Shown here one piece after another: positions 6,879 to 63,933 of a stretch of 64,000 nucleotides of DNA. This DNA is from Eledone cirrhosa. Taxonomy: Eukaryota. Position numbers and translations under genes: made by a program. Under the pieces are notes generated by a model, which saw nothing but the letters and a program-made list of their open reading frames with translations, was not told where the DNA came from and made no database searches. The stretch is taken from assembly GCA_964016885.1 (NCBI GenBank), contig OZ024743.1, positions 314,092,001 through 314,156,000 on the forward strand. The letters are read 5' to 3'. Each line of letters begins with the position of its first letter. The first letter of the stretch is position 1.

Positions 6879-7950
<1,072 letters not shown>

Positions 7951-8002
7951 TCGGTTTCAACACACGTTTTCAGATAAAGAATCTTGCTAAACAAATTCAG
8001 AA

Positions 8003-8040
<38 letters not shown>

Positions 8041-9778: not shown

Positions 9779-9781
<3 letters not shown>

Positions 9782-11400
9782 AGAGAAAACACAGGTAAGC
9801 ATTAAAAAAAGAATTTATCCAGGTATTTACGACCGTTTCATTGGTAAGTGCAACCTTATATTGCTATACTGCAAATAGCAGCCACTCAATAATAATTGTT
9901 GTTCACAGATTTAACACCTCTATTAGTACTAACCTACTGTCTACCTTCTTTAGAATAATAAATAAGCACTTTCCAGATTCACATAGATACAGCAAAATCC
10001 TTAACACTAAATCTATTAGACTATCTTACTCCACTGCACCAAACATAGAGGCACACATCAAGATGCTTAACGCTAATAAGATACTTAACAACACCGGAAC
10101 ACAAATTTATAACAATAACAATACAATTACCATTGAACACAACATAATATCTAATACACAACCACCCACTAATAGGCAAACAAGACGTAACACACTTGTA
10201 CAGGCATAGCAGCACACCAATAATGCCAAAGTTGCCCATGACAAGAATTGTAATTGCCACTTTCCTGAAACTTATCCATTACATAATGAATATATGCAGT
10301 CTAACCTGGTTTACCAATGCACAGTGGAATCAGACAACCAGAAATGGTATTACATCGGAGCGACTGAGAATACATTTAAAGTTCGTTGGTATACACACAG
10401 TTACGCAATGAAACATTCCCAGCATCGTTATGTAACTACCCTTGCAAACAAGACCTGGCAACTGAGGGAAAGTAACCATCAATACACCCTGAAGTGGAGA
10501 ACATTATCGAACGCGCCCCCATATCGGAGTAGTATGAGAAGCTGTCGGTTATGTGACCTTGAGTTGTTCCACATTTTGAGTTCGAAGAATATGTTACTCA
10601 ACAATAAAATCGAAAGATCAATTTATTGTAACCATAGACTCAAAGAAAAGTTTTCACACTACAAGTGCAAATCGAACCCTTAACCTCTTACTACCACCTG
10701 ACAAACTGCATATACTTAGACTTTCTACCCTCTTATTGTATCTAACCCCTTTAATTACCCACAAAAACCATCCTTCCCTCCTCCTTCATTCCTTTTCTAT
10801 TTCTTTCCATTTTTTTCCTTTCTTCTCTCCCTTTTTTGCTATCTTTTCTTTTCTTCTTTCTCTCCCCCCGCCTTCTTTATTTCTATTTTTATTTTATTTT
10901 TATATATATATTTATCTCTCTACCCGCCTCTCCATCCCTCCCACTATAAACAATTTAATTTTCTTTAAATCCCAACACTGTAAATCGACGACATGAAGCC
11001 TACCAATCAAAACTGATCGAGGAATCCTTCCACCTCTACCCATTCCTCCATCTCAGTTTGTCACTCTATTTCCTAATTCTTCTACCCCTTTCTCTCTCTC
11101 TATACTACTCTGTTTGTCAATTCACTTTCTAATTTCTCTTCCTCTCTCTCTATACTAGTAAATACAATTCCCAAAAAATGTTTTTTCTATATATTCAGAA
11201 CTTTTTAAGAGTAACTTATTCACTATTTTTAAAATTTAGACGTGAACAACAATTATTATTGAGTGGTTGCTATTTGCAGTATAGCAATATAAGGTTGCTG
11301 TTACCAATGAAACGGTCGTAAATACCTGGATAAAATACTTTTTTTAATGCTTACCTGTGTTTTCTCTTTTATCCTTTATACTCCAAGATTGAACGTGATT
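9779..11400 (+). mobile_element. PLE remnant with 5' inverted copy (about 125 bp) of its 3' end, in (TA)n
   Basis: 9783-9906 is the reverse complement of 11242-11367. Endonuclease-coding core lies between. (TA)n on both sides. Confidence 0.85.
9909..10683 (+). pseudogene. PLE thumb + GIY-YIG endonuclease, one in-frame stop (10207-10209)
   Basis: FNTSISTNL...KHFPDSHRYSKILN..SIRLSYS; NCNC; NLVYQC...YYIGATENTFKVRWYTH...CRLCDLE...CNHR. Confidence 0.9.
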
Positions 11401-11427
11401 CTTATATATATATATATATATATATAT

Positions 11428-11598
11428 AACGAAGGAAATGTGGTAAGGAACCAGGTGGACCATAACGCACCAAAGTACTCAATACTTGAGGTAGTAGAGT
11501 GGGTAATAGGAACCAGTAAGACCCCGACAGCTGAGCTCAAGCCGTTTCGAATTAGCCGTCGAAACGGCTTGAGCTCAGCTGTCGGGGTCTTACTGGTT

Positions 11599-11600
<2 letters not shown>
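11428..11600. mobile_element. Fold-back 3'-end fragment of the 5.5-kb/12.3-kb HHR family
   Basis: Inverted arms containing GAAACGGCTTGAGCTCAGCTGTCGGGGTC (3' half of the HHR). (TA)n on both sides. Related copy at 53889-54025. Confidence 0.75.
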
Positions 11601-11636
<36 letters not shown>

Positions 11637-11643
<7 letters not shown>

Positions 11644-12251
11644 TGCCCCCTCGTTATTGAGAATGGCCATTGGGCGATATACCATTATTAATAATTATTA
11701 ATTAATTCTATCGTGCAATGCCTGTGCGTGAAGTTGTTTTTTAAAGTGAGGAAAGACTGTGCACTGAGCCAATCTCACTCTCTGAGCGACAGTAGCTATA
11801 ACCCGAAAAGAAGAAAAGATCAACATCATCGGTAACTACTGAGCCGCAGGTTTTATATCGGAGTTATCCCAGTTAGCTGAGTTGCCTTCTCATAGAAGAA
11901 TGCCCTGACAAAGGCTAGGGGTCCTTCACTCCCAGTGGTTTAACCGCGTGATCGGGTGTCCAGCCCGACTATTTCTGTCCCCGCGCATATATATACACAT
12001 GCGCCCATGTATATACACATATACCTATACATACATATGTACATGTGTATATACATATTTACACATTTGGGACTCTTATGAGTTCTTCCGCCATTTGTCA
12101 GGTATTGTTTTTTGTCCTCCAGGGTGTCCAACATCACCCTCCTCACCAAGTAAACTTGGTGGGGTTGACGGTTTAGTCGCCGACGACCGGACCATGCAAC
12201 AGGTTGTTCTGGGTTACATGTTACCAGTACCACTCAATAGTGATCCGACAT
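11637..12251. repeat. Unclassified (TA)n-flanked interspersed repeat, second copy at 26085-26590
   Basis: Both copies start tgatggctgccccctcgtta directly after (TA)n and align over about 450 bp. Confidence 0.8.
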
Positions 12252-12309
12252 AATATATATATATATATATATTTATATATACATACATATATATATAGGA
12301 AAATGTTAG

Positions 12310-12405
12310 ACCCCGATGGCAGTGCTCAAGCCGTTTCGACGTCTATTTCTGGACTAAATTAGAATTTTTAGCGTGGTAAATAAATAGCAAAACTTTTCAA
12401 TGGGT
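12310..12405 (-). ncRNA. Hammerhead, U3-A8 variant (second copy), within short insertion 12297-12466
   Basis: ACCCa-TTGAAAA-[stem II]-GAAA-CGGC...GCCa-TC-GGGGT. Confidence 0.6.
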
Positions 12406-13107
12406 AATTCCTTATATAGGAAGATTGCAGTTGTCCATCTGGTTCCTTACCACACCTCCTTCATTATATACACACACACGCGCACGCACGCACACACACA
12501 CATACACACAGACACACACACACAAACACACACAAACACGCACACACACACACGACCACACACACACGTGCTTTAGTATTTATGTATATAAACATAATAG
12601 AAATACACACACACACACATATATATATATAGGTTGATGTATCTATATATGTACGTCTGTGTACTGAAAAGTAAACAGATTTGATGGTATAATTGAATGA
12701 ATATGTTGGCACATTAGTTTTCATTGTTCATATTTATCTTTGCAGTATATCTGCCCACTTGTTTAGATAGTGTAATTAGTTAGTTATGATTATGCTGAAG
12801 TGGTTTCATAAGTCCTCTTAGGACTTTGTTGTTTTTCTATATTTATTATGTATAATTATATCGATTGTTTAATAAATACTTATGTGTATACAAGTGAACA
12901 GGAATTTCTATACACTCTTATTAATTTCATGTTTCCAGCCAGTGTGATCTGCGTATACCCGGCTACCTAAATAAAAATCTAGACTTCGCAGAATTTATAT
13001 TGGTCTTATTGATATATAATCTTTGCCTAATCTATCTAGAAACGAGCTTGGTTTTGTTGTTGTTATTTAGTCCTTTCTATAAAAAGATAGTTATTATTAA
13101 TATAATG

Positions 13108-13322
13108 GTTTCTTACATAGGCACAAGACTAACGATTTAGCGTGAGGGGAAAGTCGATTAAATCGACCCCAGTGCGTGACAGATGGCTTATTTTATCGAC
13201 CCCGTAAGGATGAAAGGCAAAGTTAACCCCGTCGGGATTTGAACTCAGATCATAAAGGGCCGTTACTCTATGCTGCAAAGCATGTTGTACGACGCCCTAC
13301 CGATACCGCCAATTTGTGTCCC
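13108..13322 (-). mobile_element. tRNA-derived SINE with 20-bp TSD
   Basis: B-box gagttcaaatccc on the minus strand. TSD tagttattattaatataatg at 13088-13107 and 13323-13342. Confidence 0.9.
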
Positions 13323-14124: not shown

Positions 14125-14715
14125 TTAAAGCTTCTCGAAATTTAGCTATTTTGTAATTGATCGATAGATAATTTGTGAAAAAGGAAAGAGGTCATTGCTA
14201 TCTATAGACACATGCATCTTCATATATAATGCATATTCTATATTGTTTGTTGCATGTCAATCGGTTCTGACGACGAATATTTGTGTTGTTTGAACAGGTG
14301 AACAAACTGCGCATAAAATTACATCCACGTGGCTGATCATTCCAGCGATAATTATAAACTTAACGTAGATCTCCAAGAGATCCAATGGCAGTATGGCAAG
14401 AGTGACTCTTTGAAGTACAGTTACAACTTATTTATGCCAGCCAAGAGAAATGGAGCTATGTGAAAAGAGTGTATTGCTCACGTTTACAATACAATGCTTG
14501 AAACCGATCACAGGTTCCTGTGATCGTGATCCGAATATGCTAAACACAAAGCTATGCTCCTTCAGACCTCTATTATATTCTAGAATAGATAAACATTATT
14601 TCCAGTTGATTAATATTAAAAAGAATTAGAACTAGTCTGTATTAACGTAGAAAACCTATTGCGTTTTTCAATATGTTTAATTATATATAATTTTAAAAGC
14701 GCTTTCTTTAATAAT

Positions 14716-14894
14716 TGTTTTTACTTTTGGCACAAGGCCAGCAAATACTCAGTGCATTACTGGTACTTTATTTTATCGACCCCGTAAGGATGAATGGCAA
14801 AGTTGACCATGGCGGGATTTCAACTCAGAATGGCAAGGGCCATTCTGAGTTAAAATCCCGCTGGGGTTAACTTTGCCTTTCATCCTTACGGGGT
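14716..14894 (-). mobile_element. SINE with 5' inversion and TSD
   Basis: Minus-strand SINE 3' part followed by an inverted segment (about 14843-14896). TSD cgctttctttaataat on both sides. Confidence 0.8.
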
Positions 14895-16343
14895 CGCTTT
14901 CTTTAATAATGTTGATACTTACTTAATCTGCCAAAATATCATAGAATTTCCTTGTAACAATAGAATGCTGGTATAAATTCATTGACAGCGGTCAAGTTTC
15001 AAATTTTGACGACATCGATAATTCACACGACAAAAAGATCCAACAAATAAAATGGGTTCGTTTCCTTATATTTATGCAATCGGTTACACATGTAATCAAC
15101 AAACATAAAAAAGAGAAATAGGAATACTAACGTAAAATAAAATGATTTCTTATTAACGCACAATGATTATATCGATGCCAGTATTCAGTGGAATTTATTT
15201 TATTGAGCTTCAAAATTGATAGCCAAAGTTGAACCCGCCGGGATTTGAACTAATAGAAAAAGCCGGAATCAATATTTCAAAGCATTTTCCGTGGCTCTAA
15301 CGATTCTGCCATTCCACATGCAATATAGAAAAAAAATGGAGTGGAAACTAGTGTAAAGAAAGGGAAACAAAGCAACGGCTCCGTTTGAAAAAAGCGTCGT
15401 AAACTCTAAATATGAAATATAAAGCGAACAGGAGATGAAACTGCTATTTTCTTCTCTGTGTGACACCAGATGACGGTGCCTCATGAGTTGTAAACATTTG
15501 CATTTTTGAGAATTTGTATAATAAGACGCTTAGAAAGCTAATTAGCTAATGATATTGCTGGAAAGCTTCTCATTACGTTGCCAACTTTATAAATGGAGAG
15601 TTGTCAGATTAAAAGTTAATACTAAATACCTAATTAGTTTTGGTAGCCTCTAAATGACGTGCCATTATAGCAGACATAAATTCTAAGTATATCATTGATG
15701 AATCCCCACACCATGCGTTATATAACTCTATACTTCCCTTTTCTGTCAAATCGCTCTAAATTAGACTTGGCGACACCAAATAAACCATAGGCTTGTGAAT
15801 GAGAACGGGGAAGTGTATATATATATATTATTGCTCCTTAGGTTGAGCTGAACGTAGCCTCATATATACGGCTGTTATTTCTAGCAGTACGGTTATGAGG
15901 CTAGCTAGAAACTGTGAACCATGTGCGTTATACAGTCTTTTAAATTATTTAGAAGTGAAGCATATCAATTTGTTCCTGGATGTTTACTGAAGAGAGCAGG
16001 ACATGATATCCTTACACTTTTTCATCTCGAAACATATTTGGATTTTAAAGTTTAAACTTATCTACGGAACAGGTTTGATTTTGAAGTTTAAATATGTCTA
16101 AACATCACGGCCATTTGGCAATACAGTTCGTCTTTGTTGATTTATTATTTTAAATCGATATGGACAGACTGTAATATTATAATTAGTATACTTCATTCTA
16201 GCTAAACTTTCTTTTGCAATATAAATACAGATATGTTGGTATTTGTGTTTCATCATATATATTAATTTATATTTAAATGTTTTACACGGCTCAGAAATAT
16301 TTCTTTCTTTGAGCTAATTTCATTGTAAAAGAATTCATTACAC

Positions 16344-16394
<51 letters not shown>

Positions 16395-16397
<3 letters not shown>

Positions 16398-16592
16398 AGA
16401 AAAACCACAGGCCTCCCATCTCAATTCTACTTTTGAAACGCAAAAGAACTGCGAAACCGGTAAAGGAACCAAATAAATATATATTTAAAAAAAAAAGACT
16501 CCAGATGCATTTTCGATTTTATCTTTTCTCCTTATACATTCACTCGTGTATGAGACTTCGGTTATTTTTCATTTTGTAAAAAAAACCCTCAC

Positions 16593-16600
<8 letters not shown>
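16395..16600 (+). mobile_element. About 205-bp non-coding HHR-bearing element in (TA)n, second copy at 62441-62651
   Basis: Both copies start gtgagaaaaaccacag and end cctcactttctaat. Degenerate HHR at 16430-16465 (core TTGAAAC). Confidence 0.8.
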
Positions 16601-21484: not shown

Positions 21485-21844
21485 CGGTAGAGGGTCGGAC
21501 GCCATGCTTTGAAGCATAGAATTACGTCCCTTTATAATCTGAGTTCAAATCCCGCCGAGGTTAACTTTGCCTTTCATCCTTACGGGGTCGATAAAATAAA
21601 GTACCAGTAATGCACTGGGTATTTGCTGGCCTTGTGCCCAAAATAGAAACGATTATTTCTGAGTGGATTGGCAGTATCGGTAGAGGGTCGGACGCCATGC
21701 TTTGATGCATAGAGTTACGGCCCTTGCCATTTTGGGTTCAAATCCCGCCAAGGTTAACTTTGCCTTTCATCCTTACGGGGTCGATAAAATAAAGTACCAG
21801 TAACACACTGGGTAATTGCAGGCCTTGTGCCAAACGTAGAAACA
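21485..21844 (+). mobile_element. Two tandem tRNA-derived SINEs inserted in the PLE arm
   Basis: A-box tggcagtatcgg and B-box gttcaaatccc. attatttct(g) recurs at 21475, 21652 and 21845. Both SINEs are absent from the opposite arm. Confidence 0.9.
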
Positions 21845-22155
21845 ATTATTTCTCGAGACAGCATATATATTTGTAGGTATGTATATTTCCCCTGATAGTT
21901 TGTAACACTTTTACATAGATCTATATGATATACATACCAACACACACATATATCCTAGAGACGATCGTAAAAGGATGAATTTTTTAATATAAGGAACTGT
22001 TTCTTTGTTTTTATTCATTGTTTTTATTAATTTATCTTGACTGTTTTCCTGTGATTTTCATCGAAAAAAGTTTTGAATACATCTTCTCTTTTCATGATAT
22101 TTGGATTACATTGAGTTCTTCATACGGATTGGACACTACCGTATATTTTGGTAGA

Positions 22156-22230: not shown

Positions 22231-24860
22231 CATCTTCATCATCACCGTTTTAGGTCCGTTCTTCCACGCTAGAATGGGTTAGACGGGTTGTCCTGTTGTG
22301 GGCAGTGTCTGGTCGGCTGACCTTATCTGGCTTATACAGGAATTGATTCTGGCTTAATTTCTACAGCTGGATGCCCTTCCTAACACCAACCTCATTTACA
22401 GTGAGTGCTGGGTGATTTTTTTCCGTGGCGCCTACACGTCCACTTTACAGTGTGGGCTGGGTGCTTTTTTGCCGTGGCACCTCCAAGACCACTTTGCAGT
22501 GGGAGGGTGTAGGGGCATATTGTCTATATGCTTCAGCTTCGGCTTGTACCCGTGGGAGGTCGGGTACTCTGTATTTCTGCATGACGCCAGAGGTCACGGT
22601 CGTGTGTCATCGCCTTTGAAGTTGAAATAGGGTAAGGTCGGCTTTTATCGCCTCATCCCAGGTCTTCTTGGGTCTCCCCACTCCGCGGTTTCCATTGACT
22701 TCTAGTGCTCTGCACCTTTTTATGCAGCTGTCATCCTTCATACGCATCACATATCCATACCAACGCAAACGCCTCTCCTGCACACAGCATTTGATTCCTC
22801 TTATGCTCAATCTCTTTCTCAATTCATTTATGCTTTGCCGTTCGCGTATATTACTATTACACATCCATCGGAGCATGCAGGCTTCGTTTCTTTCTAATCT
22901 ACATGGCTTGTACAGCTTTCACAAGCCATTCATCTACTCCTAGTTTTCTAAGAGCCCGCCAGAGTATAGCACATGGAACTCTGTCAAAGGCTTTCTCGAG
23001 ATCGACGAATGCCAGGTAGAGTGGCTTACGTTTAGCTAGGTACTTTTCCTGTAACTGCCTCACCAGGAAGAGGGAATCAGTGGTGCCTCTTCCTGGTACA
23101 AACCCAAATTGCATCTCATCTAGTTTCACCCGGTCCCTAATCAACTGTGCTATAACTTTTTCTGTTACTTTCATGACCTGGTCCATCAGCATTATACCTC
23201 TATAGTTTCCTCTATCTAGTGCATCACCTTTACCTTTGTAGCAGTTGAAAATGATGCTACTGCACCAATCCTTTGGTATGACACCTTCTAATATTACCTG
23301 GTTAACAATACGTGCGGTTATAGTGTAACCTACCGACCCAGATGCCTTCAGCATCTCAGCAGCTATACCTGATGGACCGGTTGCCTTCCCCATCTTCATA
23401 TCTTTGATTTTTTTACTTACTACGCTGCTGCTGACTTGCACTGCTGGCCCCTCTATAGGGTCTACTTGGGGTAGGGTCTCTTCTTCCCATGCATTCTCCT
23501 CATATAATAATCTATCATAATGGCTCTTCCATGCATCTTTCTTCTCAGCAATTGTGAGGGCAAGCTCACCTTTATCATTCCGGATACACTTCTCTCCAAT
23601 GACATCACAATTCTCTCTGATACACTGCCTCGCAATCTTGAACACCTCCTGTTTCTGGTCCTCACGTTGCAAACCATGCTTGAATTTTCTATCCTCTGCT
23701 TCCCTCCTAGCTAAGTATACTTGTCGCCTAGCTTGCCTCCTGATCTCTATGTAATGTACCCTGCTTCCCCCGTTCTTCCATTCTTTCCATGCCTGTCTCT
23801 TGGCCTCAACTGCCTCATCTACCTTATTGTTCCACCACCAAGTCATTCTCCTCCTGCCCGTGGTCTTACTCCAGCCACAGATCTCATCCGTCGCCTCTAG
23901 TAAGTTATTTTTTAGGAATTCCCAGTGCTCTTCTACATTGAATGTCTCTATCTGTTCTTCTTTACTGTCGTAGGTGTTGATTAAAATATCTTTAAATCTA
24001 TTACTGGCTGAGGGGTCTTTCAGCTTCCAGATATTTCTTCTCCAGGTTGGCCTCTGTTTCCAGGTTCGTCTAGTTCTGACCGTGAGGTCGCTGACAACTA
24101 AGCTATGTTGGGAGGTACATTCCTCACTAGGGAAAGCTGTTGTGTTTACGACCGGCCATCTGTCACGTCCTCTGATGAGGATAAAATCTCTCTGACTAGA
24201 ATGCTCCTCTGATCTATATTTGATTAGGTGGTTGTCGGGTTTTTGGAACCCCATGGCCTCCATGGACTCTATTGAAGCCGTCACATTGTTTACCTACATG
24301 TCCGTTAAAATCTCCTGCACTGATTAGGAAGTCATTGTCGTTTATTAGAGCAGTAGTGTGCATTAGTGACTCGTAAAACCTATCTTTAAGTTCGTCTGGC
24401 AACCCCGATTGGGGTGCGTAAGCTGATATTATTGTGGTAATTGTTTTATTCAGGACTAGTCTGAGTTTAATGATTCTTGCATTCACCCTGTTCACTGAGA
24501 TTACTTTATCTACCCACTTGTCAGCTAGTAGAATACCTACACCACCCATCGCATCGTCATTTCCCACCCAGAAAAATTTGTAGCACTGGAGTTTTCCTAC
24601 AAGGACTCTAGCAGACTCTCCTCTCCAGCTAGTCTCTTGCACACAGCATACATCAATTTCCTTTCGCTCTAGCATCTCTACGATTTGTCCTGCTCTTCCT
24701 TTCATTGTGCTTACATTGATGGTACCAACTCGGAGTTTTGGGCATTTGTTAACATTCGTGGGGAAGGATCGATTTTTGCAGGGTGTGCGTGTGCTTCCTG
24801 TCTCTGAATTGAAGCTTCACATGGGTGCTTGGTAGAACGCGGATTCATATTCATTTTCAT
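22229..24860 (-). mobile_element. RTE-clade LINE (APE endonuclease + RT), frameshifted, RT core internally deleted
   Basis: DVCCVQET, ISAYAPQ, GDFNGHVG (24214-24705); YKGKGD..DRGNYRGI, QFGFVPGRGTTD, FVDLEKAFDRV (22899-24284); C-terminal RRLRWYG...GRPKKTW (22607-22876); (GAT)n-like tail near 22229-22244. Confidence 0.93.
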
Positions 24861-25357: not shown

Positions 25358-25411
<54 letters not shown>

Positions 25412-25453
25412 TTTCTGAATTTTTTTATTGGCAACATGACCCTCCCAAAGTAT

Positions 25454-25519
<66 letters not shown>

Positions 25520-25524
<5 letters not shown>

Positions 25525-26025
25525 TAAGTATGTATACGTACATACATATAAGTATACAGACGTACAGTAGTATGTATGTATATATATATACATACATGCA
25601 CACATATATATATAAATATAAGTATGTATACGTACATACATATAAGTATACAGACGTACAGTAGTATGTATGTATATATATATACATACATGCACACATA
25701 TATATATGTACGTGTGGATTCACCGAACATTTATTATAATGCTCGGTGTGTTTGTAAACAAACATCCCGAATTAAACCGTACAAATGAGCAACGATGGTT
25801 ACTAGACACTGTACGGCTTAATTCTGGATGTTTGTTTACAAATACACCGAGCATTATAATAAATGTTCGGTGAATCCATACGTACATATATATGTGTGCA
25901 TATATGTATATATATATATACATGCTACTGTACATCTGTATACATATATATATGTACGTATACATACTTATATTTAAGTAACAGCCGTACTAAGAGTGAG
26001 AAATGAAATTTCGTTTCATTTTTCC

Positions 26026-26030
<5 letters not shown>
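25520..26030. repeat. Fold-back fragments of the 427-bp unit family (HHR segment missing)
   Basis: Matches 62755-63640. Minus fragment to about 25782 is joined to a plus fragment. (TA)n on both sides. Confidence 0.8.
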
Positions 26031-27310: not shown

Positions 27311-27446
27311 GTATATGTAAGCAGCCTGAAATAAAAGCCCACACTCTTCTTCAACTATCGCACTCAAAACGAAGACAGAATAGGGTGTAATGGCTAGGAA
27401 CATTTTGTTTATATCTCTGCTGATCTGAGACCAAGCATCTAGTAAT

Positions 27447-27563
27447 AATTGTTTCTACTTTTGGCACAAGACAAGCAATTACCCCAGTGTATTACTGGTA
27501 CTTTATTTTATCGACCCCGTAAGGATGAAAGGCAAAGTTACCCTCGACGGGATTTGAACTCAG
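27447..27563 (-). mobile_element. 5'-truncated SINE (degenerate copy at about 27770-27900)
   Basis: ttttatcgaccccgtaaggatgaaaggcaaagtt...gggatttgaactcag. Confidence 0.85.
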
Positions 27564-39770: not shown

Positions 39771-39774
<4 letters not shown>

Positions 39775-39982
39775 TTAATATAGATGAGATTCTACAGGAC
39801 TAGAACTGTTTCATTCTTTAGAAATCATCAGGAATCCTGTTTTACGTGGGATTCCTGATGATTTCTAATGATTGAAACAGTTCTAGTCCTGTAGAATCTC
39901 ATCTATATTAAAACTTTTATACTCTGCTATGTATTGAGTACCTTACTTACTGTGGTTACCTCCGATTTAACCCGGAATAACT
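39771..39982. mobile_element. Fold-back insertion with two divergent hammerheads
   Basis: 39771-39837 is the reverse complement of 39849-39915. (TA)n flanks. Confidence 0.85.
39849..39899 (+). ncRNA. Type I hammerhead (minus copies at 39787-39837 and 54045-54090)
   Basis: GGATTC-CTGATGA-[12 nt]-GAAA-CAG ttctagtc CTG-TA-GAATCT. Stem II (ttc taaa gaa) is intact in the minus copies. Confidence 0.85.
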
Positions 39983-39985
39983 TAC

Positions 39986-40096
<111 letters not shown>

Positions 40097-40596
40097 TGTG
40101 TGTGCGTATATGTGTGTGTGAGTGTATGCTTTAATTCTTTCAAATCTTCATCAACACTCATTAACACGACACCCCACACCCAGACACATCCAAATCTTTC
40201 TTATATATACATATATATAGTCACACCTCACAACATAACCTGATCTCAGTTTGACAATCACCACCGACGAATGCGAGAAAGTTCTCCAACAAAGTTAACC
40301 AGGAATCTTTAAATTCTTCCCACCGAGTTAACAAAGAACTTACTAGATCTACCAACTCATAACATTAGAATATTATAAAATTAAATCAAATTATTTAACA
40401 CTACAAGTGAAGTCATTCTTTTCCTTTTTTTTTCAAATATACCTAACTGTACCAAGGATCTCACACATTTTCCAATATATACTGTATATATACATATGTA
40501 ATTATGCATACGTACACACATATATAGACACACACACACACATATATATCTATACATATACATATGTAAGCATGGGTTATATCGATCATTAATAAT

Positions 40597-40814
40597 GCGT
40601 TCTTCTATAGGCACAAGGCCAGCAATTTGGAAGCTGGGGAAAGTCGAATAAATCGATCCCAGTGTGTGACTGGTGTTTTATTTTACCGACTCCGTAAGGA
40701 TGAAAGGCAAAGTTAACGTCGGCGGAATTTGAACTCAGATCATAAAGGGCTATAACTCTATGCTGCAAAGCATGGCGTCCGACTGTCTCCCGATACTGCC
40801 AATCCACCGCCCTA
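40597..40814 (-). mobile_element. Full-length tRNA-derived SINE with TSD
   Basis: TSD tatcgatcat(t/c)aataat at about 40580 and 40815. A and B boxes on the minus strand. Confidence 0.88.
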
Positions 40815-41255: not shown

Positions 41256-41336
<81 letters not shown>

Positions 41337-42116
41337 ATGAATGTATATATAGTGCATTTGGTAATACACTGTATGCTTAATTAAAAGCATTTTGATGACC
41401 TTACGCTATTGTTTTAAAGTAGTGACTATGTCACTTCCTTTTTCAACAAACAAAGGGAGATAAGCACTCCCTTCGATTGTTGAAAATTATGAATGTTGGA
41501 TTCTTATAGAATTCCAGTAATAATCAGGAACTGATTATACAGACCGGTTGCCGAACCAGCAAACATTGAAAAGTATAACTTGTGCTCTGAAATAGCGATG
41601 TATGTATGAATGTATATATAGTGTATTTGGTAATACACTGTACGCTTAATTAAAATCATTTTAAAGACCTTACGCTATTGTTTTAAAGTAGTGACTTACT
41701 TCTTTTTTCAACAAACAAAGGGAGATAAGCTGACAGATCTCTGTTTCATACTGTTGGCATTCCTCAGAGCTTATCACTCCCTTTGCTTGTTGAAAACTAT
41801 GAATGTTGGATTCTCATATAATTCCAGTAATAATCAGGAACTGATTATACAGAGCGGTTGCCGGTCCAGCAAAAACTGAAAATTAGAATTGGTGCTCTGA
41901 AATAGCGATATATATATATATGAATGTATATATAGTGTATTTGGTAATACACTGTATGCTTAATTAAAAACATTTTGAAGACCTTTCGCTATTGTTTTAA
42001 AGTAGTGACTATGTCACTTACTTCTTTTTTTCAACAAACAAAGGTAGATAAGCTGACAGATCTCTGTTTCATACTGTTGGTATTCCTCAGAACTATTTTA
42101 AAACAATAGCGTAAGG
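41337..42116 (-). mobile_element. Retrozyme-like tandem array (about 320-bp unit, about 2.5 copies)
   Basis: Units start at 41337, 41606 and 41920. HHR in units 2 and 3. Short inverted segment at 42097-42116. Abuts (TA)n. Confidence 0.85.
41724..41775 (-). ncRNA. Canonical type I hammerhead
   Basis: GATAAGCT-CTGAGGA-ATGC caaca GTAT-GAAA-CAGA ga TCTG-TC-AGCTTATC, with stem I extended past a bulge. Confidence 0.92.
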
Positions 42117-48138: not shown

Positions 48139-48714
48139 AAGTACGTACAGTAGAAATATCGTTATGAGATTTCTGGGCCATTTATTGTGGTCCTTAACTT
48201 AAAATAACATTGTAGATAAAAAAATACTTTGCAAGTTTTTGTTCTTTTGCTTTCAAATTAGATTTCGCTCATGAAAAATTATCCAAAAGATTATACCTTG
48301 ACGAATAAAACCTACTAATATGCTAATAAAATATGAAAAAAAAATACTAATATTAACTCTTCTTCATTTAAACCATTGTTTCTACATTTAAACAATTGTT
48401 TCAATATTTAGCACAAGGCTAGTAATTTTAAGGGAAAGAAAATATCGATTAAATCGATCCTACTTCGTTACTGAGGTTTATTTTATCGACAGTTTAAGGA
48501 TGAAAGGAAAAGCTAACCTCTGCGGGATTTGACCTCATACCGTAGAAGTCGTAACATCATACACAAGAAAGTTTGTCCGACTTTCAGCCGATACTACTAA
48601 TCCACTGCAACTATAAACAACGACAACAGTAAACTTCAATATATGCCGTCGTTACAAATAATTGTTAAATACCACTCTTTTCCGCAGAGAAGTCATACTG
48701 TTCACTTAAATAAT

Positions 48715-48900
48715 TGTTTCTACGTTTGGCACACGGCTAGCAATAACACAGTACATTACTGGTACTTTATTTTATCGACCCGTAAGGATGAAAGGCAAAG
48801 TTAACCTCGGCGGGATTTGAACTCAGAATGGCAAGGGCCGTAACTCTATGCGTCAAAGCATGGCCTCCGACCCTCTACCGATACTCTCAATCCACCGCCA
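48715..48900 (-). mobile_element. tRNA-derived SINE with TSD (older copy at about 48395-48605)
   Basis: Family core sequence, flanked by tgttcacttaaataat and tgtacacttagataat. Confidence 0.88.
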
Positions 48901-53255: not shown

Positions 53256-53826
53256 GTGAAACTTAAGTAAGTAAGTTAATTACTATAATTTTCTTATTTT
53301 GCGTCTTTTATATAATTGTTCTACATCATTTTCTATTGAATCACACAGTTACTAAGACAAAACCTATATCTCTGCTAGCGTAAGTATACATCTGTATAAA
53401 TATGTTGGTAGATATACTAATTCTTTATAATTATCTCCAAATTATTTTGTTGAGCAAAAATTTGCCTAAATTACTACTATGGTTCATAGTATCAGTTTGG
53501 CTACTCTCTTTTTAACACCCCACTCCCCACTGATTAACCTCGATGTCACGTGATTGATTCTTTTGAAATGTCCACTGACCGGGAAGGCAGTGAAATGTTC
53601 AGTGTCTGGAATTTAGACCGCGCTTGCTTTTTTCCACCCACTGAATTATTTTTGTTTGAGCTCCCTGTGTCTGCCTATTTCCAGGAATATTAGCCGAGAA
53701 TTGACTCCCTGATGAAGAAAGGATTCTCTATAGTTTCCATTTGAACAATATATATATCCCCTTTCAGAAACTAATTAGTTGGAGTGAAACTTAAGTAAGT
53801 TAATTACTATACTTTTCTTATTTTAC

Positions 53827-53828
<2 letters not shown>
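53256..53828 (+). mobile_element. Diverged 1.1-unit copy of the 538-bp retrozyme-like family
   Basis: Terminal direct repeat gtgaaacttaagtaag...ttcttatttt at 53256 and 53784. (TA)n on both sides. Confidence 0.85.
53704..53785 (+). ncRNA. Hammerhead with intact core
   Basis: ACTCC-CTGATGA-a GAAAGG ... CCTTTC a-GAAA-CTAATTAG-TT-GGAGT. Confidence 0.85.
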
Positions 53829-53891
<63 letters not shown>

Positions 53892-54202
53892 AACAAGTAG
53901 GACCCCGACGGCTGAGCTCAAGCCATCGGGGTCCTACTTGTTCCTATTACCCACTCTACTACCCTAAGTATTGTGTACTTCGGTGCGTTATGGTCCATCT
54001 GGTTCCTTATGACATTTCCTTCGTTATATATATATATAGATGATATTCTACAGGACTAGAACTATTTCATTCTTTAGAAATCATCAGGATTCCTATTAAG
54101 GACTCATCAAGGCAAGTAAAGCTATAAGGAGCACTATCGGCCAATACAAGCCAAAAAACTAGTAAGAAAAGCCTTGACCTTATTATATCAGCCGTTGGGG
54201 AA

Positions 54203-55828
54203 ATGGTTAATTTTAACCTATGGGGGAACACTAAGGAAGTTATAGATTGGTTCTCTGGGATTAATAAACTTGAATCTAATAAGTTTATCCAGTTCGATAT
54301 TGATGCCTACTACACATCGATTTCACCCATCCTCCTCAATAAAGCCTTAATGTTGGCTATGAGAGTGTCCAGCCTTACACGATCACAGGTAGATGTTATA
54401 CTAGCAGCCCGTAGAACTATCATTAATTTTGAGGACACATTTTGGACCCGTAAAAACACGCCCAACAATTTCGACGTTACAATTGTTTCGAATGATTCAG
54501 CCCAGGTAACTGATCTTGTTGGGTTGTTCCTCCTAAATGAACTATATGTTACCTTTCCGCACCTTAAAGGCGGACTATATCGTGATGATGCATTGTTTGT
54601 GATTAACTCTAGCACCAACAATGTCGAGCATAATAAGAAGAAGCTTTATAAGTTTTTTAAAAGCTATAACCTTTCGATCACGATAGATAGAAACGATAGA
54701 GCGGTCAACTTTTTAGATGTGACTTTGGACTTGGTGACTAATAGTTTTAAACCCTTCCATAAGCCTAATGAAATACTCTCTTATGTTAGTCCCAATTCTA
54801 ACCACCCCAAATCTATGATAAGCTCTATAATTAATGGTGTATCTAATAGAATTTCCACACTCTCTAAGGACATAGGAATATTTAATGCACATGCAGAGTA
54901 CTATAATAATTCCCTAGCTAACTCCGGTTACTCTGGTAAAATACATTATAATAATAGTAACCTTAGAAAGTCTCCGCTTACATATAATAATAATAACATA
55001 ATATCCCATAATATGGCCATGAATGGGAGTAGAAAGCATAAGAATCGTATAAATCCCATAGGTGTATCCGAACCCATCCATAAGTTAAGCCACCGGATTC
55101 GTAATAGGGAATCTAATAGTTCTAGGGATCAAGTTGGGCACTCTGAGCGCTCACTCAGTGGTAATGCTTTTGCTAAATCTAATGTTTTTACTAATTCTAA
55201 TAGTGTTGTTTCTACTGATCCTATTAGTAGCCCTAATCCTATTGATATGATTCCAGATAGCAGTAGATATACTAAAGGTAGAAACAGAAGGAGACTCAAT
55301 GGGGTTTCGGCTGATTCTAATAATGTGGTTTCAACTAGTCCTCGTAGTAACCCAGATCTTAATAATGGGATATTAGATAACGGTAGAGTTGGTAAGGATA
55401 GAAATAGAAGGAGACTAAATACTTATTTTAACCCGCCATATGATCAGGAAGTATTAACTAACATCCATAGGTCTTTCTTTTCTATCTTAGAGAAAAATGT
55501 CCCTCCTACTAATAAATACCATGGTATTTTTAATAAAAATGTAATTAAACTATCATTCTCTACCACCCCTAATATTAGTTCTCATTTAGCTAGCACTAAC
55601 AATAGGAAAATTAGGGACCGCTACTCCTCTTTGCGTAATACTAGTCTGGATAGATCCATAAATGCCTTACCACCTGAGCAGACCTTATCTCATAGTAACA
55701 CTACGAGTGATGCATCACTACTTCAGCCGATCAATAGCACCCGGAATTGTAACTGTAGAGTGAGTGTTAACTGCCCTTTAAACGGTAACTGCCTCTCTAG
55801 GGGACATTGTTTATGCTTGTGTAGTTAA
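54203..55828 (+). CDS. PLE reverse transcriptase core + thumb + Zn-linker (partial, probably pseudogenic)
   Basis: FIQFDIDAYYTSI, FDVTIVSNDSAQVTDLVG, GLYRDD, VNFLDVTLDL, SNHP, YFNPPY, CNCRVSVNCPLNGNC. Confidence 0.9.
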   Translation: MVNFNLWGNTKEVIDWFSGINKLESNKFIQFDIDAYYTSISPILLNKALMLAMRVSSLTRSQVDVILAARRTIINFEDTFWTRKNTPNNFDVTIVSNDSAQVTDLVGLFLLNELYVTFPHLKGGLYRDDALFVINSSTNNVEHNKKKLYKFFKSYNLSITIDRNDRAVNFLDVTLDLVTNSFKPFHKPNEILSYVSPNSNHPKSMISSIINGVSNRISTLSKDIGIFNAHAEYYNNSLANSGYSGKIHYNNSNLRKSPLTYNNNNIISHNMAMNGSRKHKNRINPIGVSEPIHKLSHRIRNRESNSSRDQVGHSERSLSGNAFAKSNVFTNSNSVVSTDPISSPNPIDMIPDSSRYTKGRNRRRLNGVSADSNNVVSTSPRSNPDLNNGILDNGRVGKDRNRRRLNTYFNPPYDQEVLTNIHRSFFSILEKNVPPTNKYHGIFNKNVIKLSFSTTPNISSHLASTNNRKIRDRYSSLRNTSLDRSINALPPEQTLSHSNTTSDASLLQPINSTRNCNCRVSVNCPLNGNCLSRGHCLCLCS

Positions 55829-56200
55829 AACTAATTCCTCTAATAGCACATATATAGGCTCAACATCTAACACTTTTAAGACTAGGTTTAATTCTCATAT
55901 CTCTAATTTTAAACATGTTAAGTTTAAGAATTCTACTTCTTTAGCACACCATATCTGGGATCTTAGGGGGCTAATATACCATATAGCCTTAATTGGCGAA
56001 TAGTAGCACGCTCTAATAACCTATCAACACACACTAAATTCTGTAATCTCTGTACCCTTGAGACCCACTCTATAATTTTCTCTAGGGAACTCTTACGTAA
56101 TAGAAAGTCTGAGATATTTTCTTCCTGCCCCCACGCCATTTCTAATTCTTACTTTTATTATAAACTTAAAAGTTCTGGTAGTGTAAATTGTATCCATTAG
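55803..56200 (+). pseudogene. GIY-YIG endonuclease, frameshifted from the upstream ORF
   Basis: DIVYACVV...TYIGSTSNTFKTRFNSH...STSLAHHIWDL; CNLCTLE...SEIFSSCPH. Confidence 0.88.
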
Positions 56201-57575
56201 CTGCTATATTCCCTTATCTTTTTTTGTTTAGGTTCATTTTGTTTACCACCATCATTATCATTATTATTATTGGTTTTTAACAGCTTCTCGATCTAGCTTT
56301 CATAGTTTTTTGGCTACCATACCATATCTATCTTCTTAAATATTATATTTTCACTATTAACACATTATGAGTTTATATCTGATTATATATTTTATTTGGA
56401 TTCTCATTTAGATAATTAATCCCCTCCTCCTCTTCCTCCCTTTCCCCCCCACACACTTGTCATTCGCCCCTTCAATTATACTATAATTATGTTCAATTCC
56501 CTTTTATGCTCCTTTCTATTGTATTATACAGTATATTGATTATGATTTTATGCTCCTTCGTATCCTACATACCTTTCTTTTTTCTGTTCTCATTGGCCTA
56601 CCATAGTTCTATTTAAGGTCCTTTTATTAGATAACGTTATTCAACGTTATTTAACTTTTATTAGATAACGTTAAAGTAGAATATTTCATTCTATTCTGGA
56701 TATTTTTATTGAGATATCTTAAACTTTAGAGACTTTGATAACTTAAACCATAGCTAATTTTGTATTGACTTATTATGTATTTTAAATACTTTCAATATTA
56801 ATTAATTTAATAAGGTTTTCTAGTTATTTATCCGGGTTTGATTCCTAACTTTTTTTACTTAACTGCTTGTGACACCTAAGTAAATATATTTGTTTTTGTT
56901 TTTCGATTTCCGGTTGATTTTATTTATATTTTTTTTACTACCGTGCATAGTTTCTGTCTGGTTCTTATTCACTTATTCACATATGTCTGTCTACCAACCA
57001 TGTAATTATGTATACTATACTATGTTTGTTATTTGATATTGAAGTTGTTATATCATATCACTTTATGTAATCGTACTATAGATCTTAAATATTTACCGAT
57101 TATTCGATGTACCCTTATGTTAAATTTTGTAAATTCTGTAATATGTTTATATTTTTATAATTTTTATAATGTTTAGATAATATTTATTTATACCAATTGT
57201 ATAAAAACTCGACCTCCGTCTGTTTTGTTACAACAGTATAGATATTTTTCCAGCACAATTTTTTCAACACAATTCAGTTCTTTATTATATTTTTTTCTCA
57301 CCCTGTGTGTAAATTTATATGATTTGTTAAGTTATATGCCAATATTTTATAATATTGTTATTATAGTGTTATTGTAATATTTATATTGTTTGTGCAAATT
57401 GACCGGAGATTATAAATTATATAGTATATTATATATTATATTTTTATTTTTATTCATTTCTTTATTATTTTATACTGTAAATAATATATGTATTATATTT
57501 ATATTTAAACTCTTAATAAGTGTTAGTTTGTGTTTGTATTGATGGATATGTATATTGATATATATATATGTATAC

Positions 57576-57681
<106 letters not shown>

Positions 57682-57950
57682 ATATTGGGTCTTTTAATAT
57701 TATTATTATTATCATTATCAATTATATTATATTATATTATATATCGTACTGTAATTCTCGCTTTATATCACCACTTGTGTTTAGTTTTAGTTTTTGCATT
57801 GTACTATATTTGTAATATGGGTTCATAATGTTATTCACTTCCTTAGCAATTTTTACTTGATCATTTTCCTATGCTTTAATGTATGTATACTCCATATTCT
57901 TCTGAGTTTTTGGCTTGTATTAGCCGATAGTTCTTCTTATAGCTTTACTT

Positions 57951-57988
57951 GCCCTGATAAGTCCTTAATAGGATGAAACATTGTTGGC
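57951..57988 (+). ncRNA. Hammerhead at PLE 3' end (G8A in this copy)
   Basis: GCC-CTGATAA-GTCCT taat AGGAT-GAAA-CATTG-TT-GGC. Confidence 0.7.
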
Positions 57989-59827: not shown

Positions 59828-61242
59828 GTAATAATAATAAATTTGAAAGACTAAAATCCAAAGAGAGCTCGATAAGGAAAAATATATATCAAATATATAA
59901 GAACCGTAGGGCAAATATTTATTAAAATAACACATTAAAGTTTAAGCAAAAATCGCTCCTTCACCCTTAACGGGATCTTCTGAAAGTAAAAAAAATCAAT
60001 CTGTGAACGCAGAAGTAAATATTTCGAAAAACATTGCAACCGACGTCTACGCCTCCTCACCTTGCACATAACACCATTACTGCAAATTTAGCTAAATTAC
60101 CTAGCCATAGGAACACGTGCAACCCTGTAGCTAGTATTAACTGTAATTGTAGGAATCGGGTTGACTGCCCTCTATCCGGGAAATGCCTCTCCAGTAACAT
60201 TGTCTACAAATGTAAGGTCGAAACGCCCACGTCCCGTAGGGCCTACATAGGGTTAACCGCCAATAGATTCAAGCACCGTCTTTACATGCACACGCATTCT
60301 TTTTTTAACCCTTTAAGAAGGAATATGACGTCACTTTCAGCTCATATCTGGAGTCTAAAAGACAACCACACCCAATAAAACATTCCTGTATTACAGCCCC
60401 ACATTATACCCTAACGGATAGTACGAACAATACGCGGATAATTTACGTCTTGATGTGGTAGCTAAGTATATTTTATGTTTATAAAGAACGCATTTTTATA
60501 CCATTACTTATTTGTATAGATAAGTATACATTACTCGTATGTTTTGTGAAGGTACGTATATTTTCTGGTACGTATATTTGCTTGTATTTGTTATAGGTGT
60601 ATATATTATATTATATATAATGGTACAGGTGTATAATGTTATTTGTATATGTGTATTTTGTGTTTGCATGTGTATGCGTCTTTGAACGTATGTAAGGTGT
60701 GTATATGTATACTTTGTGTTTTGGTTGATGTAGGTTTAGTGAACATATGTGTATTTACCTCTAGGTATGTGTGTGTGTGCGTTATTTACGTATTTATGCT
60801 TGTATATTTATATACATTTATATAATTATATGCGTGCATGCGTGTATGTATATATTTAATTATTGTTGATTTCAATAACCTCGGTCATTTACGTTCTACT
60901 AATTTATTTAGATTATTCTTAACTTTGAAGCCGAGAATCATTCGGTTTCCTAAATAGAATATTAATCTACGACTTCATTTATACCATAAACGTGGTTTTG
61001 TCTTTAGGTGTAATTGTTATCTTTGGTCCACATTATGACGTATTATCTTCACTTTTTTCCGTTCAATGCCAGAGCAAGTCTTTCGCGAACCAAAGTATCA
61101 TCTTCCTGTCTTGCTTCGGTTGCAACGTTTTTCGAAATATTTACTTCTGCGTTCACAGATTGATTTTATAAGTTTCAGAAGATCCCATTAAGGCTGAAAG
61201 CAGCGATTCTTTGCTTAAACTTTAATCTGTTATTTTTATAAA
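59828..61242 (+). mobile_element. PLE remnant: 5' inverted arm, GIY-YIG fragment (60040-60378), 3' UTR, HHR
   Basis: About 59915-60042 is the reverse complement of 61117-61243. NCNCRNRVDCPLSGKC..NIVYKC...AYIGLTANRFKHRLYMH...SLSAHIWSLK. Fold-back fragment of the same family at 63652-63880. Confidence 0.87.
61170..61222 (+). ncRNA. Hammerhead-like fold with CAGAAGA (U4A) core
   Basis: AAGTTT-CAGAAGA-tCCC attaa GGCt-GAAA-GCAG cgattct TTGC-TT-AAACTT, plus distal stem acagattga/ttaatctgt. Minus copies at 59938-59985 and 63674-63726. Confidence 0.7.
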
Positions 61243-61850: not shown

Positions 61851-62474
61851 ATGTTTGTGTGTATGTGTGTGTTTTTGTATGTATATGCATATGTGCGTCT
61901 GTGCGTGAGTGTGTGTGTGTATTAGGAGAGTTAAATGCATTTCATGACATGAGTGAATATTAGAGAATTTTCGGTTCGTTAGACTTTCCAAAAATAGATT
62001 TACAACGGGCTGTTATTGATAAAAAATGCATTAGATACAATAAGTTGATTATAATTCGGACAAAAGTAACTGAGAGCCTGACATGAATTATATTTGCATA
62101 GATGGATCTCCGATGATCATATTATTGTGTTGCTAAAATTATCGAAGCTGCTAAGTGAATTACACCTTTCTCAATTCTCTCACTCACAAACCTAATTTCA
62201 GACAAATTCAACAATTTCGATGCAATGATACACACTTATAAATATGTAAGTCAGATAAGAACGCATACACACACACACACACACACATATACTGTATATA
62301 TATATATATATATATATAAAAGGAAAAAATGAAACGAAATTTCATTTCTCACTCTTAGTACGGCTGTTACTTAATTATAAGTATGTATACGTACATACAT
62401 ATATGTATACAGACGTACAGTAGTATGTATATATATATATGTGAGAAAAACCACAGACCCTCCATCTCAACTCA

Positions 62475-62512
62475 CCTTTTGAAAAGCAGAAGAACTGCGA
62501 AACCGGTAAAGG
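62475..62512 (+). ncRNA. Compact hammerhead, U3-A8 core, in the 205-bp element 62441-62651
   Basis: CCTT-TTGAAAA-GCAG aagaa CTGC-GAAA-CCGG-TA-AAGG. All stems are perfect. Confidence 0.85.
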
Positions 62513-62644
62513 AACCAAATAAATATATATATTTAAAAAAAAAATAAGACTTCAGTTGCATTTTCGATTTCATCCCTTTTTCTTTATACTTCCACTCATG
62601 TAGGACACATCGGTTATTTTTCATTTTGTAAAAAAAAACCTCAC

Positions 62645-62687
<43 letters not shown>

Positions 62688-62960
62688 CACACATATATAT
62701 ATGTACGTATGGATTCACCGAACATTTATTATAATGCTCGGTGTGTTTGTATATATATGTATGTACGTGTACATACTTATATTTAAGTAACAGCCGTACT
62801 AAGAGTGAGAAATGAAATTTCGTTTCATTTTTTCCGTTTATCGTTTTCGGTACCCCGGCCGATTAACTCACTCGATATGCAAATTAGGCTGCTCAGCCGT
62901 TAATATGCATAAGGAAAGTATATACTTTCAGACGTTCAACCATCTGGCAGGAAGGTATAC

Positions 62961-62999
62961 GTTGCTGACGATAGCCAATAAGCTTGAAACTAGTACAGC
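62961..62999 (+). ncRNA. Type I hammerhead (second copy at 63386-63428)
   Basis: GTTG-CTGACGA-tAGC caataa GCTt-GAAA-CTAG-TA-CAGC. Confidence 0.88.
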
Positions 63000-63876
63000 A
63001 TTCTTTTGTCAGTGTTGAACAAATGACCAACGATGGTTGCTAGACACTGTACGGCTTAATTCGGGATGTTTGTTTACAAACACACCGAGCATTATAATAA
63101 ATGTTCGGTGAATCCATACGTACATATTTATATGTGTGCATGTATGTATATATATACATACTACTGTACATCTGTATACATATATGTATCTACGTATCCA
63201 TACTTATATTTAAGTAACAGCCGTACTAAGAGTGAGAAATGAAATTTCGTTTCATTTTTTCCGTTTATCGTTTTCGGTACCCCGGCCGATTAACTCACTC
63301 GATATGCAAATTAGGCTGCTCAGCCGTTAATATGATTAAGGAAAGTATATACTTTCAGACGTTCAACCATCTGGCAGGAAGGTATACGTTGCTGACGATA
63401 GCTAATAAGCTTGAAACAAGTACAGCGTTCTTTTGTCAGTGTTGAACAAATGAGCAACGATGGTTGCTAGACACTGTACGGCTTAATTCGGGATGTTTGT
63501 TTACAAACACACCGAGCATTATAATAAATGTTCGGTGAATCCATACGTACATATATATATGTGTGCATGTATGTATATATATATACATATACATACTACT
63601 GTACGTCTGTATACATATATGTATGTACGTATACATACTTATATATATACATATTTATTAAAATAACAGATTAAAGGTAAAGCAATGAATAGCTGCTTTC
63701 ACCCTTAACGGGATCTTCTGAAACTTAAAAAAATCAATCTGTGAACGCAGAACCGATTTTTGCTTAAACTTTAATCTGTTATTTTAATAAATATCTGATT
63801 TACGATTTTTATATATTTGATATATATTTATCCTTATCGAGCCCTCTTTGGATTTTAGTCTTCAAATTTATTATTA

Positions 63877-63933
<57 letters not shown>

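Follow-up and report, generated by a model that had tools for sequence, protein, structure and literature searches.

A 427-bp hammerhead dimer with PLE-type insertion ends and a nested U3-A8 element in its TA-rich tract

We found that a 427-bp tandem dimer with hammerhead motifs is bounded in the manner of a Penelope-like element (PLE) insertion, and that a second, abundant element sits inside it. Our reading, to which we give a probability of about 0.8, is that the dimer is a non-coding hammerhead repeat that was copied into a (TA)n tract by PLE machinery, and that an abundant PLE-like element nested in it later, at chance rate. The observations behind this reading are arms that face each other head to head, TA on both flanks, alternative 3′ ends separated by about 60 nt, the lack of an ORF, the hammerhead motifs, and filled and empty versions of the nesting site. 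The window, that is, the whole stretch of DNA that was analyzed, has 64,000 nucleotides (64 kb). We call the 427-bp repeat the host and the element nested in it the insert.

Structure of the host dimer

Tandem Repeats Finder reported a period of 427 with 2.1 copies and 95% matches at 62753-63641 (to 63644 in the caller). The features of the host insertion are the following:

62295..62318, no strand: (TA)12 target tract that flanks the host insertion on the left
62319..62377, minus strand: host tail, a 59-nt extension on the left arm only, unit positions about 30-88
62319..62440, minus strand: outer segment of the inverted arm, corresponding to unit positions 400-435 and 1-88
62684..62751, minus strand: inner segment of the inverted arm, corresponding to unit positions 323-390 and reaching the head-to-head junction
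62753..63179, plus strand: unit 1, 427 bp, non-coding
63180..63614, plus strand: unit 2, 435 bp
63615..63641, plus strand: beginning of a third unit, which stops at the tail-less 3′ end near unit position 29
63640..63649, no strand: (TA)5 right flank, common to the neighboring PLE-type insertion at 63650-63879

The units have 427 and 435 bp with a GC content of 0.36, and they are non-coding; the dimer is without an ORF, its longest stop-free frame having 69 codons. Unit 1 is separated from unit 2 by 11 substitutions, together with one 8-nt indel that lies within the TA-rich part. The stretches 62319-62440 and 62684-62751 form a single continuous reverse copy, from unit position 323 to position 88 of the next unit, and this inverted arm is interrupted by 62441-62650. 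The TA-rich tract of the unit is about 95 nt long and ends exactly at the tail-less 3′ end; pure TA runs within the unit measure only 10-14 nt.

Li, Clavereau, and Pollet (2026; 10.64898/2026.07.22.740005) count as a non-LTR retrozyme a tandem repeat in which two or more units follow one another, each with a complete type I hammerhead and a fold below −5 kcal/mol. The dimer falls within this definition and within the accompanying limits on unit size, GC content, and absence of protein. A preliminary description of this DNA had spoken of a 427-bp retrozyme array of two near-identical tandem units with a compact hammerhead in each, and of an inverted arm split in its TA-rich tract by a 205-bp U3-A8 element. 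The tandem and the hammerheads were recovered as described, the retrozyme label fits the published working definition, and the arm is split where it was said to be; the length of the insert had to be corrected to 210 bp.

Host hammerheads and predicted cleavage

Cores of the form CUGACGA...GAAA...UA were located at 62965 in unit 1 and at 63392 in unit 2, within these motifs:

62945..63012, plus strand: type I hammerhead of unit 1, with an extended stem I, a U.U at the base of stem II, and a predicted cut after 62995
63372..63439, plus strand: type I hammerhead of unit 2, with its core at 63392, a non-palindromic ACAAGU, and a predicted cut after 63422

With our own descriptor, nine hammerhead motifs were found in the window and between 0 and 2 in each of 20 block shuffles. 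Stem I had at least 4 pairs in eight of the nine; such a motif arose once, in one of the 20 shuffles. The extended stem I and the U.U at the base of stem II recurred in two other motifs of the window. Rfam gave no match at the gathering score across the 64-kb window, its best HH9 score being 16.7 bits (E 0.72, at 62948-63015 in unit 1) against a threshold of 52. Rfam also matched miRNA families (mir-297 and others) to the TA-rich hairpin; these matches were low-complexity and below the gathering score, and we rejected them. The two unit hammerheads folded at −14.6 and −18.6 kcal/mol in 76-nt windows chosen by the analyst.

Stem III of the host hammerheads consists of one pair and a four-base palindromic loop: it reads ACUAGU (ACTAGT in the DNA, as described earlier) in unit 1 and ACAAGU in unit 2, where the palindrome is lost. 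Hammerheads with a one-pair stem III and a four-base loop cut as dimers (Cervera & de la Pena, 2014; PMC4209133). The predicted duplex between unit 1 and unit 2 has −2.2 kcal/mol, compared with −6.8 kcal/mol for two perfect copies, and contains an A.A mismatch in the dimer helix III. As modeled here, the host hammerheads would cut only as a pair, and cleavage at this locus would be weak because unit 2, the sole local partner, has lost the palindrome.

The two predicted cuts are 427 nt apart. In an active circular-RNA retrozyme, the paired hammerheads would free a 427-nt monomer that would then be ligated to a circle and used as a rolling template. Closed to a circle, this monomer (GC 36%) has a predicted fold of −120.5 kcal/mol, with a z of −5.2 against 60 shuffles, and circles of 170-400 nt are reported from coral, mussel, and axolotl (Cervera & de la Pena, 2020; PMC7229834). 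However, the one-pair stem III needs the dimer, whose duplex is the weaker of the two given above, eight of nine predicted Xenopus dimers were uncut (Li et al., 2026), and a linear tandem transcript accounts for the DNA equally well. We regard an active circle as possible but doubtful.

Apart from the host, the window has minus-strand hammerhead motifs at 7166, 17369, 34511, and 39831, which belong to four different families, each in a head-to-head insertion.

Insertion ends and the copying mechanism

A one-sided overhang was present in all 12 head-to-head TA-bounded insertions that were picked by hand and had their arms aligned, both host loci included; it ranged from 8 to 117 nt and had at least 34 nt in 11 of them. 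The second host locus had been described as more fragments of the array at 25520-26030. It turned out to be a second complete head-to-head insertion and not a set of loose pieces:

25521..26030, no strand: second head-to-head insertion of the host family, with a 56-nt tail on the right arm only and no hammerhead

This copy is truncated before the hammerhead and has a local 94-bp duplication in the left arm (25477-25707). The overhangs of the two loci, 59 nt at 62319-63641 and 56 nt at 25521-26030, are on opposite arms: at the former, the left arm reaches unit position 88 and the right one about 29, and at the latter the reverse is found. TA runs of 10-63 nt stand at all four host ends.

According to Craig et al. 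(2021; PMC8557442), PLEs form partial tandems with an adjacent inverted 5′-truncated copy, their tail of 30-40 bp is often on one end only, and their (TA)n bias hides target duplications. Both host loci have the inverted 5′-truncated arm, the tail on one end, and the (TA)n target by which a PLE insertion is recognized; the tails here, of 56-62 nt, are longer than the published 30-40 bp. With a PLE of the green anole, AT-rich DNA was cut on both strands, reverse transcription began from two internal sites whose interval equals the tail, and hammerhead cleavage was dispensable, the uncut RNA being the main template (Frangieh et al., 2024; PMC11167929).

By analogy with the anole element, we propose that the reverse transcriptase (RT) and GIY-YIG nuclease of an autonomous PLE copied the dimer into the (TA)n tract. 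The nuclease would nick the TA tract on both strands, and reverse transcription would begin internally in the RNA, at either of two start points whose interval forms the tail. Synthesis of one arm would have continued for about 890 nt, past the cut sites of both hammerheads, and that of the other would have ended at unit position 323. Since the direct arm passes the two cut sites without interruption, the template would have been uncut RNA or a circle; the DNA fits both.

ORF remnants that are RT-like and GIY-YIG-like occur elsewhere in the window (ESM Atlas clusters with scores of 0.94-0.97, and tblastn), with Pfam families on a minority of the members in most of these clusters. Pfam named none of eight PLE-like ORFs at E 0.001 and gave weak matches only (E 0.03-0.86). 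Neither the 427-bp unit nor the 210-bp insert has an RT and GIY-YIG ORF, the unit shares no sequence with the RT/GIY-YIG remnants of the window, and no autonomous partner sharing sequence with unit or insert was found within the 64 kb.

One PLE-like remnant lies at 54039-57973; it has a 566-aa RT-like frame at 54128-55828 and GIY-YIG-like sequence to about 56176, and its terminal repeat is common to a hammerhead hairpin at 39772-39986. Another PLE family, with tails of 85-91 nt, is represented by a GIY-YIG-bearing head-to-head insertion at 59828-61241 and by a 230-bp stub at 63650-63879, which abuts the right end of the host across the (TA)5.

The tandem might also have doubled in place after the insertion of a monomer, through unequal crossover, slippage, or the homing of a copy into its own AT-rich site. 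Local amplification of a PLE terminus has been proposed (Li et al., 2026), PLE self-targeting occurs in vitro (Frangieh et al., 2024), and the 94-bp duplication in the left arm of the second locus is itself a local duplication within the host family. Yet among at least three comparable copies the differences are mostly private, in unit 1 and unit 2 alike, and no difference is common to both units as opposed to the arms. This pattern fits one homogeneous template, although an early duplication could have left it too, and we consider doubling in place rather unlikely.

Repeats of this kind trouble assemblies (Craig et al., 2021), and among the run pieces listed none spans the whole stretch 62317-62664. 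It is nevertheless hardly credible that the arrangement stems from a faulty assembly or from TA-rich repeats that match by chance: the units, the arm, and the second locus each have their own substitutions, the same architecture recurred in 12 of the 12 insertions examined, and a fraction of 0.70-0.75 of the sampled words was present in the public runs X1-X3.

The nested element and its family

The element that interrupts the inverted arm, and a second copy of it, comprise the following features:

62441..62650, plus strand: nested element of the PLE-end type, from a very abundant family, inside the (TA)6 run of the unit
62475..62512, plus strand: minimal type I hammerhead with U3 (62479) and A8 (62484), predicted cut after 62508
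62589..62650, plus strand: optional 62-nt tail of the nested element; others stop at 62588, followed by (TA)n
62651..62683, no strand: 33-nt TA run beside the nested insertion
16395..16598, plus strand: second copy of the element (204 bp), delimited by the same ends and lying in a long free (TA)n tract

The nested hammerhead has the stem II GCAG/CUGC and the palindromic stem III ACCGGU. In the copy at 16395-16598, 184 of 203 aligned letters are identical to the nested one; U3-A8 is kept and A9 is changed. TA runs of 13-50 nt stand at all four insert ends. The filled site has 13 nt of TA on one side and 33 nt on the other, and the empty versions of the site (n = 4) have 10-14 nt.

Four of 23 public runs (X1, X4, X5, and X21) were aligned to 62317-62664, of which 62317-62414 was skipped as a repeat. 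The aligned stretch was matched by 7428 contigs of X1, 2978 reads of the RAD run X21, 145 matches in X4 (a small contig set that was not treated as RNA), and 11 contigs of X5; the last run is from another organism, may represent a relative or carry-over, and was not counted as a second species. Summed contig depth in X1 was about 0.5-1.8 million across the element, a sign of great abundance and not a copy number. Among the 40 variant rows listed out of 55, none gave another letter at 62479 (U3) or 62484 (A8), while at five letters private to the nested copy the other letter made up 69-99% of X1 depth. U3-A8 is kept where private letters differ in the runs, and it is therefore the family state: the majority core of this family, and not a decay of C3-G8. 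At 62474-62475, TA replaces AC in about half of the family depth and alters outer pairs of stem I, which divides the family into two subfamilies.

Loose (TA)n ends behind 62588 were seen in 39 contigs of X1 and 2 contigs of X4, and depth falls at the same place; this indicates a second 3′ end, and hence that the 62-nt tail is optional. At the other end, opposite-strand joints cluster at 62439-62445 in the run contigs. A constant sequence lies upstream of 62439 in 46 contigs of X1, 557 reads of X21, and 2 contigs of X5, and about one-fifth of X1 depth at 62438 carries its letter; the upstream sequence taken from these loose ends is absent from the 64-kb window. The nested element is likely a 3′ end, of pLTR size, from a further PLE family that is longer than the element itself. 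Copies would usually reach to a constant position 38 nt ahead of the core, which is likely the 5′ end of the RNA. Under the proposed mechanism, this second, very abundant element, likely of PLE origin, would have landed after the host, in a short TA run.

A DNA transposon (MITE) was considered for the 210-bp element and rejected; by eye it has no TIR beyond a 5-nt motif, and it has two alternative 3′ ends. Metagenomes were scanned with a single pattern for the insert and a single one for the host, with 0 matches for each.

TA runs as insertion sites

The preliminary description further held that the unit supplies new (TA)n landing sites and thereby feeds local pile-up. The window has 111 runs of at least 5 TA units, or 108 before the two 210-bp insertions, and host copies contain 11 of these 108 (10.2%; 4.1% by length). 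TA of at least 10 nt was present at each end tested in 26 of 27 hand-listed elements. A host-internal TA run was hit by one of 25 other TA-bounded insertions, compared with an expectation of 1.0 (by length) to 2.6 (by run), in a nesting test that comprises one window, possibly richer in host copies than the genome average, and a hand-made list. For the pair of 210-bp copies, the probability that one falls in a host run by chance was 0.08-0.19. A flanking TA tract is common to 8 neighbor pairs, a host end being involved in three.

The first half of the claim stands, in a trivial sense: an internal TA run did receive an insertion. The second half is unsupported, in view of the one hit in 25 against 1.0-2.6 expected; the pile-up is real but runs through the flanking (TA)n. 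There is no sign in this window of nesting in excess of TA content, and any enrichment would be modest.

In the runs, the depth of the host flank (62413-62424) relative to that of the element (62449-62460) was 0.19% in X1, 0.47% in X4, and 1.1% in X21; these values are upper bounds from contigs that break at junctions and, in X21, from a reduced-representation set, in a bin that adjoins the skipped 62317-62414. The share expected for the host flank, calculated from the window for this tract and orientation, was 1.2-2.8%.

These figures bear on a feed-forward landing pad, in which the TA-rich tract of about 95 nt would be a preferred PLE target and would seed pile-ups above background. Such a role would agree with one real nested insertion and its four empty counterparts, with the coincidence of the end of the tract and the tail-less 3′ end, and with the cutting of AT-rich DNA by the anole PLE in its own pLTR in vitro (Frangieh et al., 2024). 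However, the host-internal hits do not surpass expectation, the chance for the two 210-bp copies is that given above, the host flank makes up at most 0.2-1.1% of family depth where 1.2-2.8% was expected, and the pure TA runs of the unit are merely 10-14 nt long. We think a landing pad very doubtful. In the preferred reading, of PLE copying followed by nesting at chance rate, insertions are bordered by TA on both sides, and later ones would pile up in these borders regardless of the content of the unit.

At 9779-12435 and 53256-54157, three to four unlike elements follow one another with only TA tracts between them. A 48-bp element between two TA tracts at 25410-25457 resembles a head-to-head stub, extreme in its shortness, from the family at 6984-8005.

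Comparison with known elements

The host resembles non-LTR retrozymes (Cervera & de la Pena, 2020; Li et al., 2026) in its tandem non-coding unit and its strongly self-paired monomer. The published unit has 150-450 bp, a GC content below 45%, and one type I hammerhead, and the 427-bp unit matches these values. The axolotl motif Amex2 shares the U.U at the base of helix II, and axolotl motifs have a palindromic tetraloop, as the host hammerhead does (Cervera & de la Pena, 2020). Unlike those retrozymes, the host has only 2.1 units and lies in a head-to-head insertion with a one-sided tail.

With the insertions of endonuclease-bearing PLEs (Craig et al., 2021; Frangieh et al., 2024), the host loci share the inverted 5′-truncated arm, the partial tandem, the one-sided tail, the (TA)n target, the hammerhead upstream of the 3′ ends, and the hidden target duplication. 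They differ in the lack of an ORF in the unit and in the longer tails given above.

The nested motif is similar to the hammerheads of the Schistosoma mansoni PLE Cercyon (Cervera & de la Pena, 2014), where U3-A8 also replaces C3-G8, with a G10.1-C11.1 pair, a 4-bp helix I, a palindromic helix III, and dispersed single motifs. Helix II has 4 bp and no extra base after A9 here, whereas in S. mansoni it is bulged and 7-8 bp long. The 210-bp family looks far more abundant than the approximately 1,300 hits of S. mansoni, the measure here being depth and not a copy count. Finally, the Chlamys element MRC1 (Craig et al., 2021) shows that PLE dependants can be non-coding and form head-to-tail multicopy insertions in microsatellites; the Chlamys elements differ in that they are green algal, have (CA)n or (C)n as preferred targets, and are mostly without canonical hammerheads.

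U3-A8 in PLE hammerheads and non-autonomous head-to-tail PLEs such as MRC1 are thus already known from the cited sources. Among the papers listed by literature searches, no title or abstract dealt with tails as a signature of retrozyme arrays or with elements nested in the TA runs of such arrays, and the words "tail" and "nested" have zero occurrences in the available text of Li et al. (2026). The dimer provides a clean worked example in which a retrozyme-type repeat is tied through its ends to PLE insertion chemistry; the consulted literature, in its available parts, argues such links mainly from co-occurrence and pLTR similarity. A more far-reaching reading would see a retrozyme array with PLE tail ends, its multimer inserted in one event by the PLE RT and, in the boldest form, its TA-rich hairpin acting as a built-in target; we judge it improbable. 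If true, it would be direct anatomical evidence that multimers of a retrozyme are inserted by the reverse transcriptase of a PLE, with uncut or circular RNA as template, and in the boldest form a hairpin ending exactly at one RT start site would attract copies of its own kind and of other PLEs. With its many natural copies, the abundant U3-A8 family lends itself to the question of whether the core is kept for cleavage. Neither the dimer nor this family changes the general picture of PLE biology, and feedback through the TA runs of the unit is unsupported.

Other repeats of the window

A second retrozyme-like tandem lies on the minus strand at 41332-42094, with a unit of about 320 bp, cores at 42090 and 41767, and a long palindromic stem III; one of its units has an internal (TA)7 run at 41908-41921. 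Remnants of a LINE-type endonuclease and RT occur at 22899-24816 on the minus strand (Pfam RVT_1, E 9e-14). A SINE-like dispersed repeat of 120-210 bp was found at 13102-13313, 14706-14896, 21485-21856, 27438-27563, 40592-40811, and 48411-48899; some copies are tandem or inverted, and those inspected are without TA bounds.
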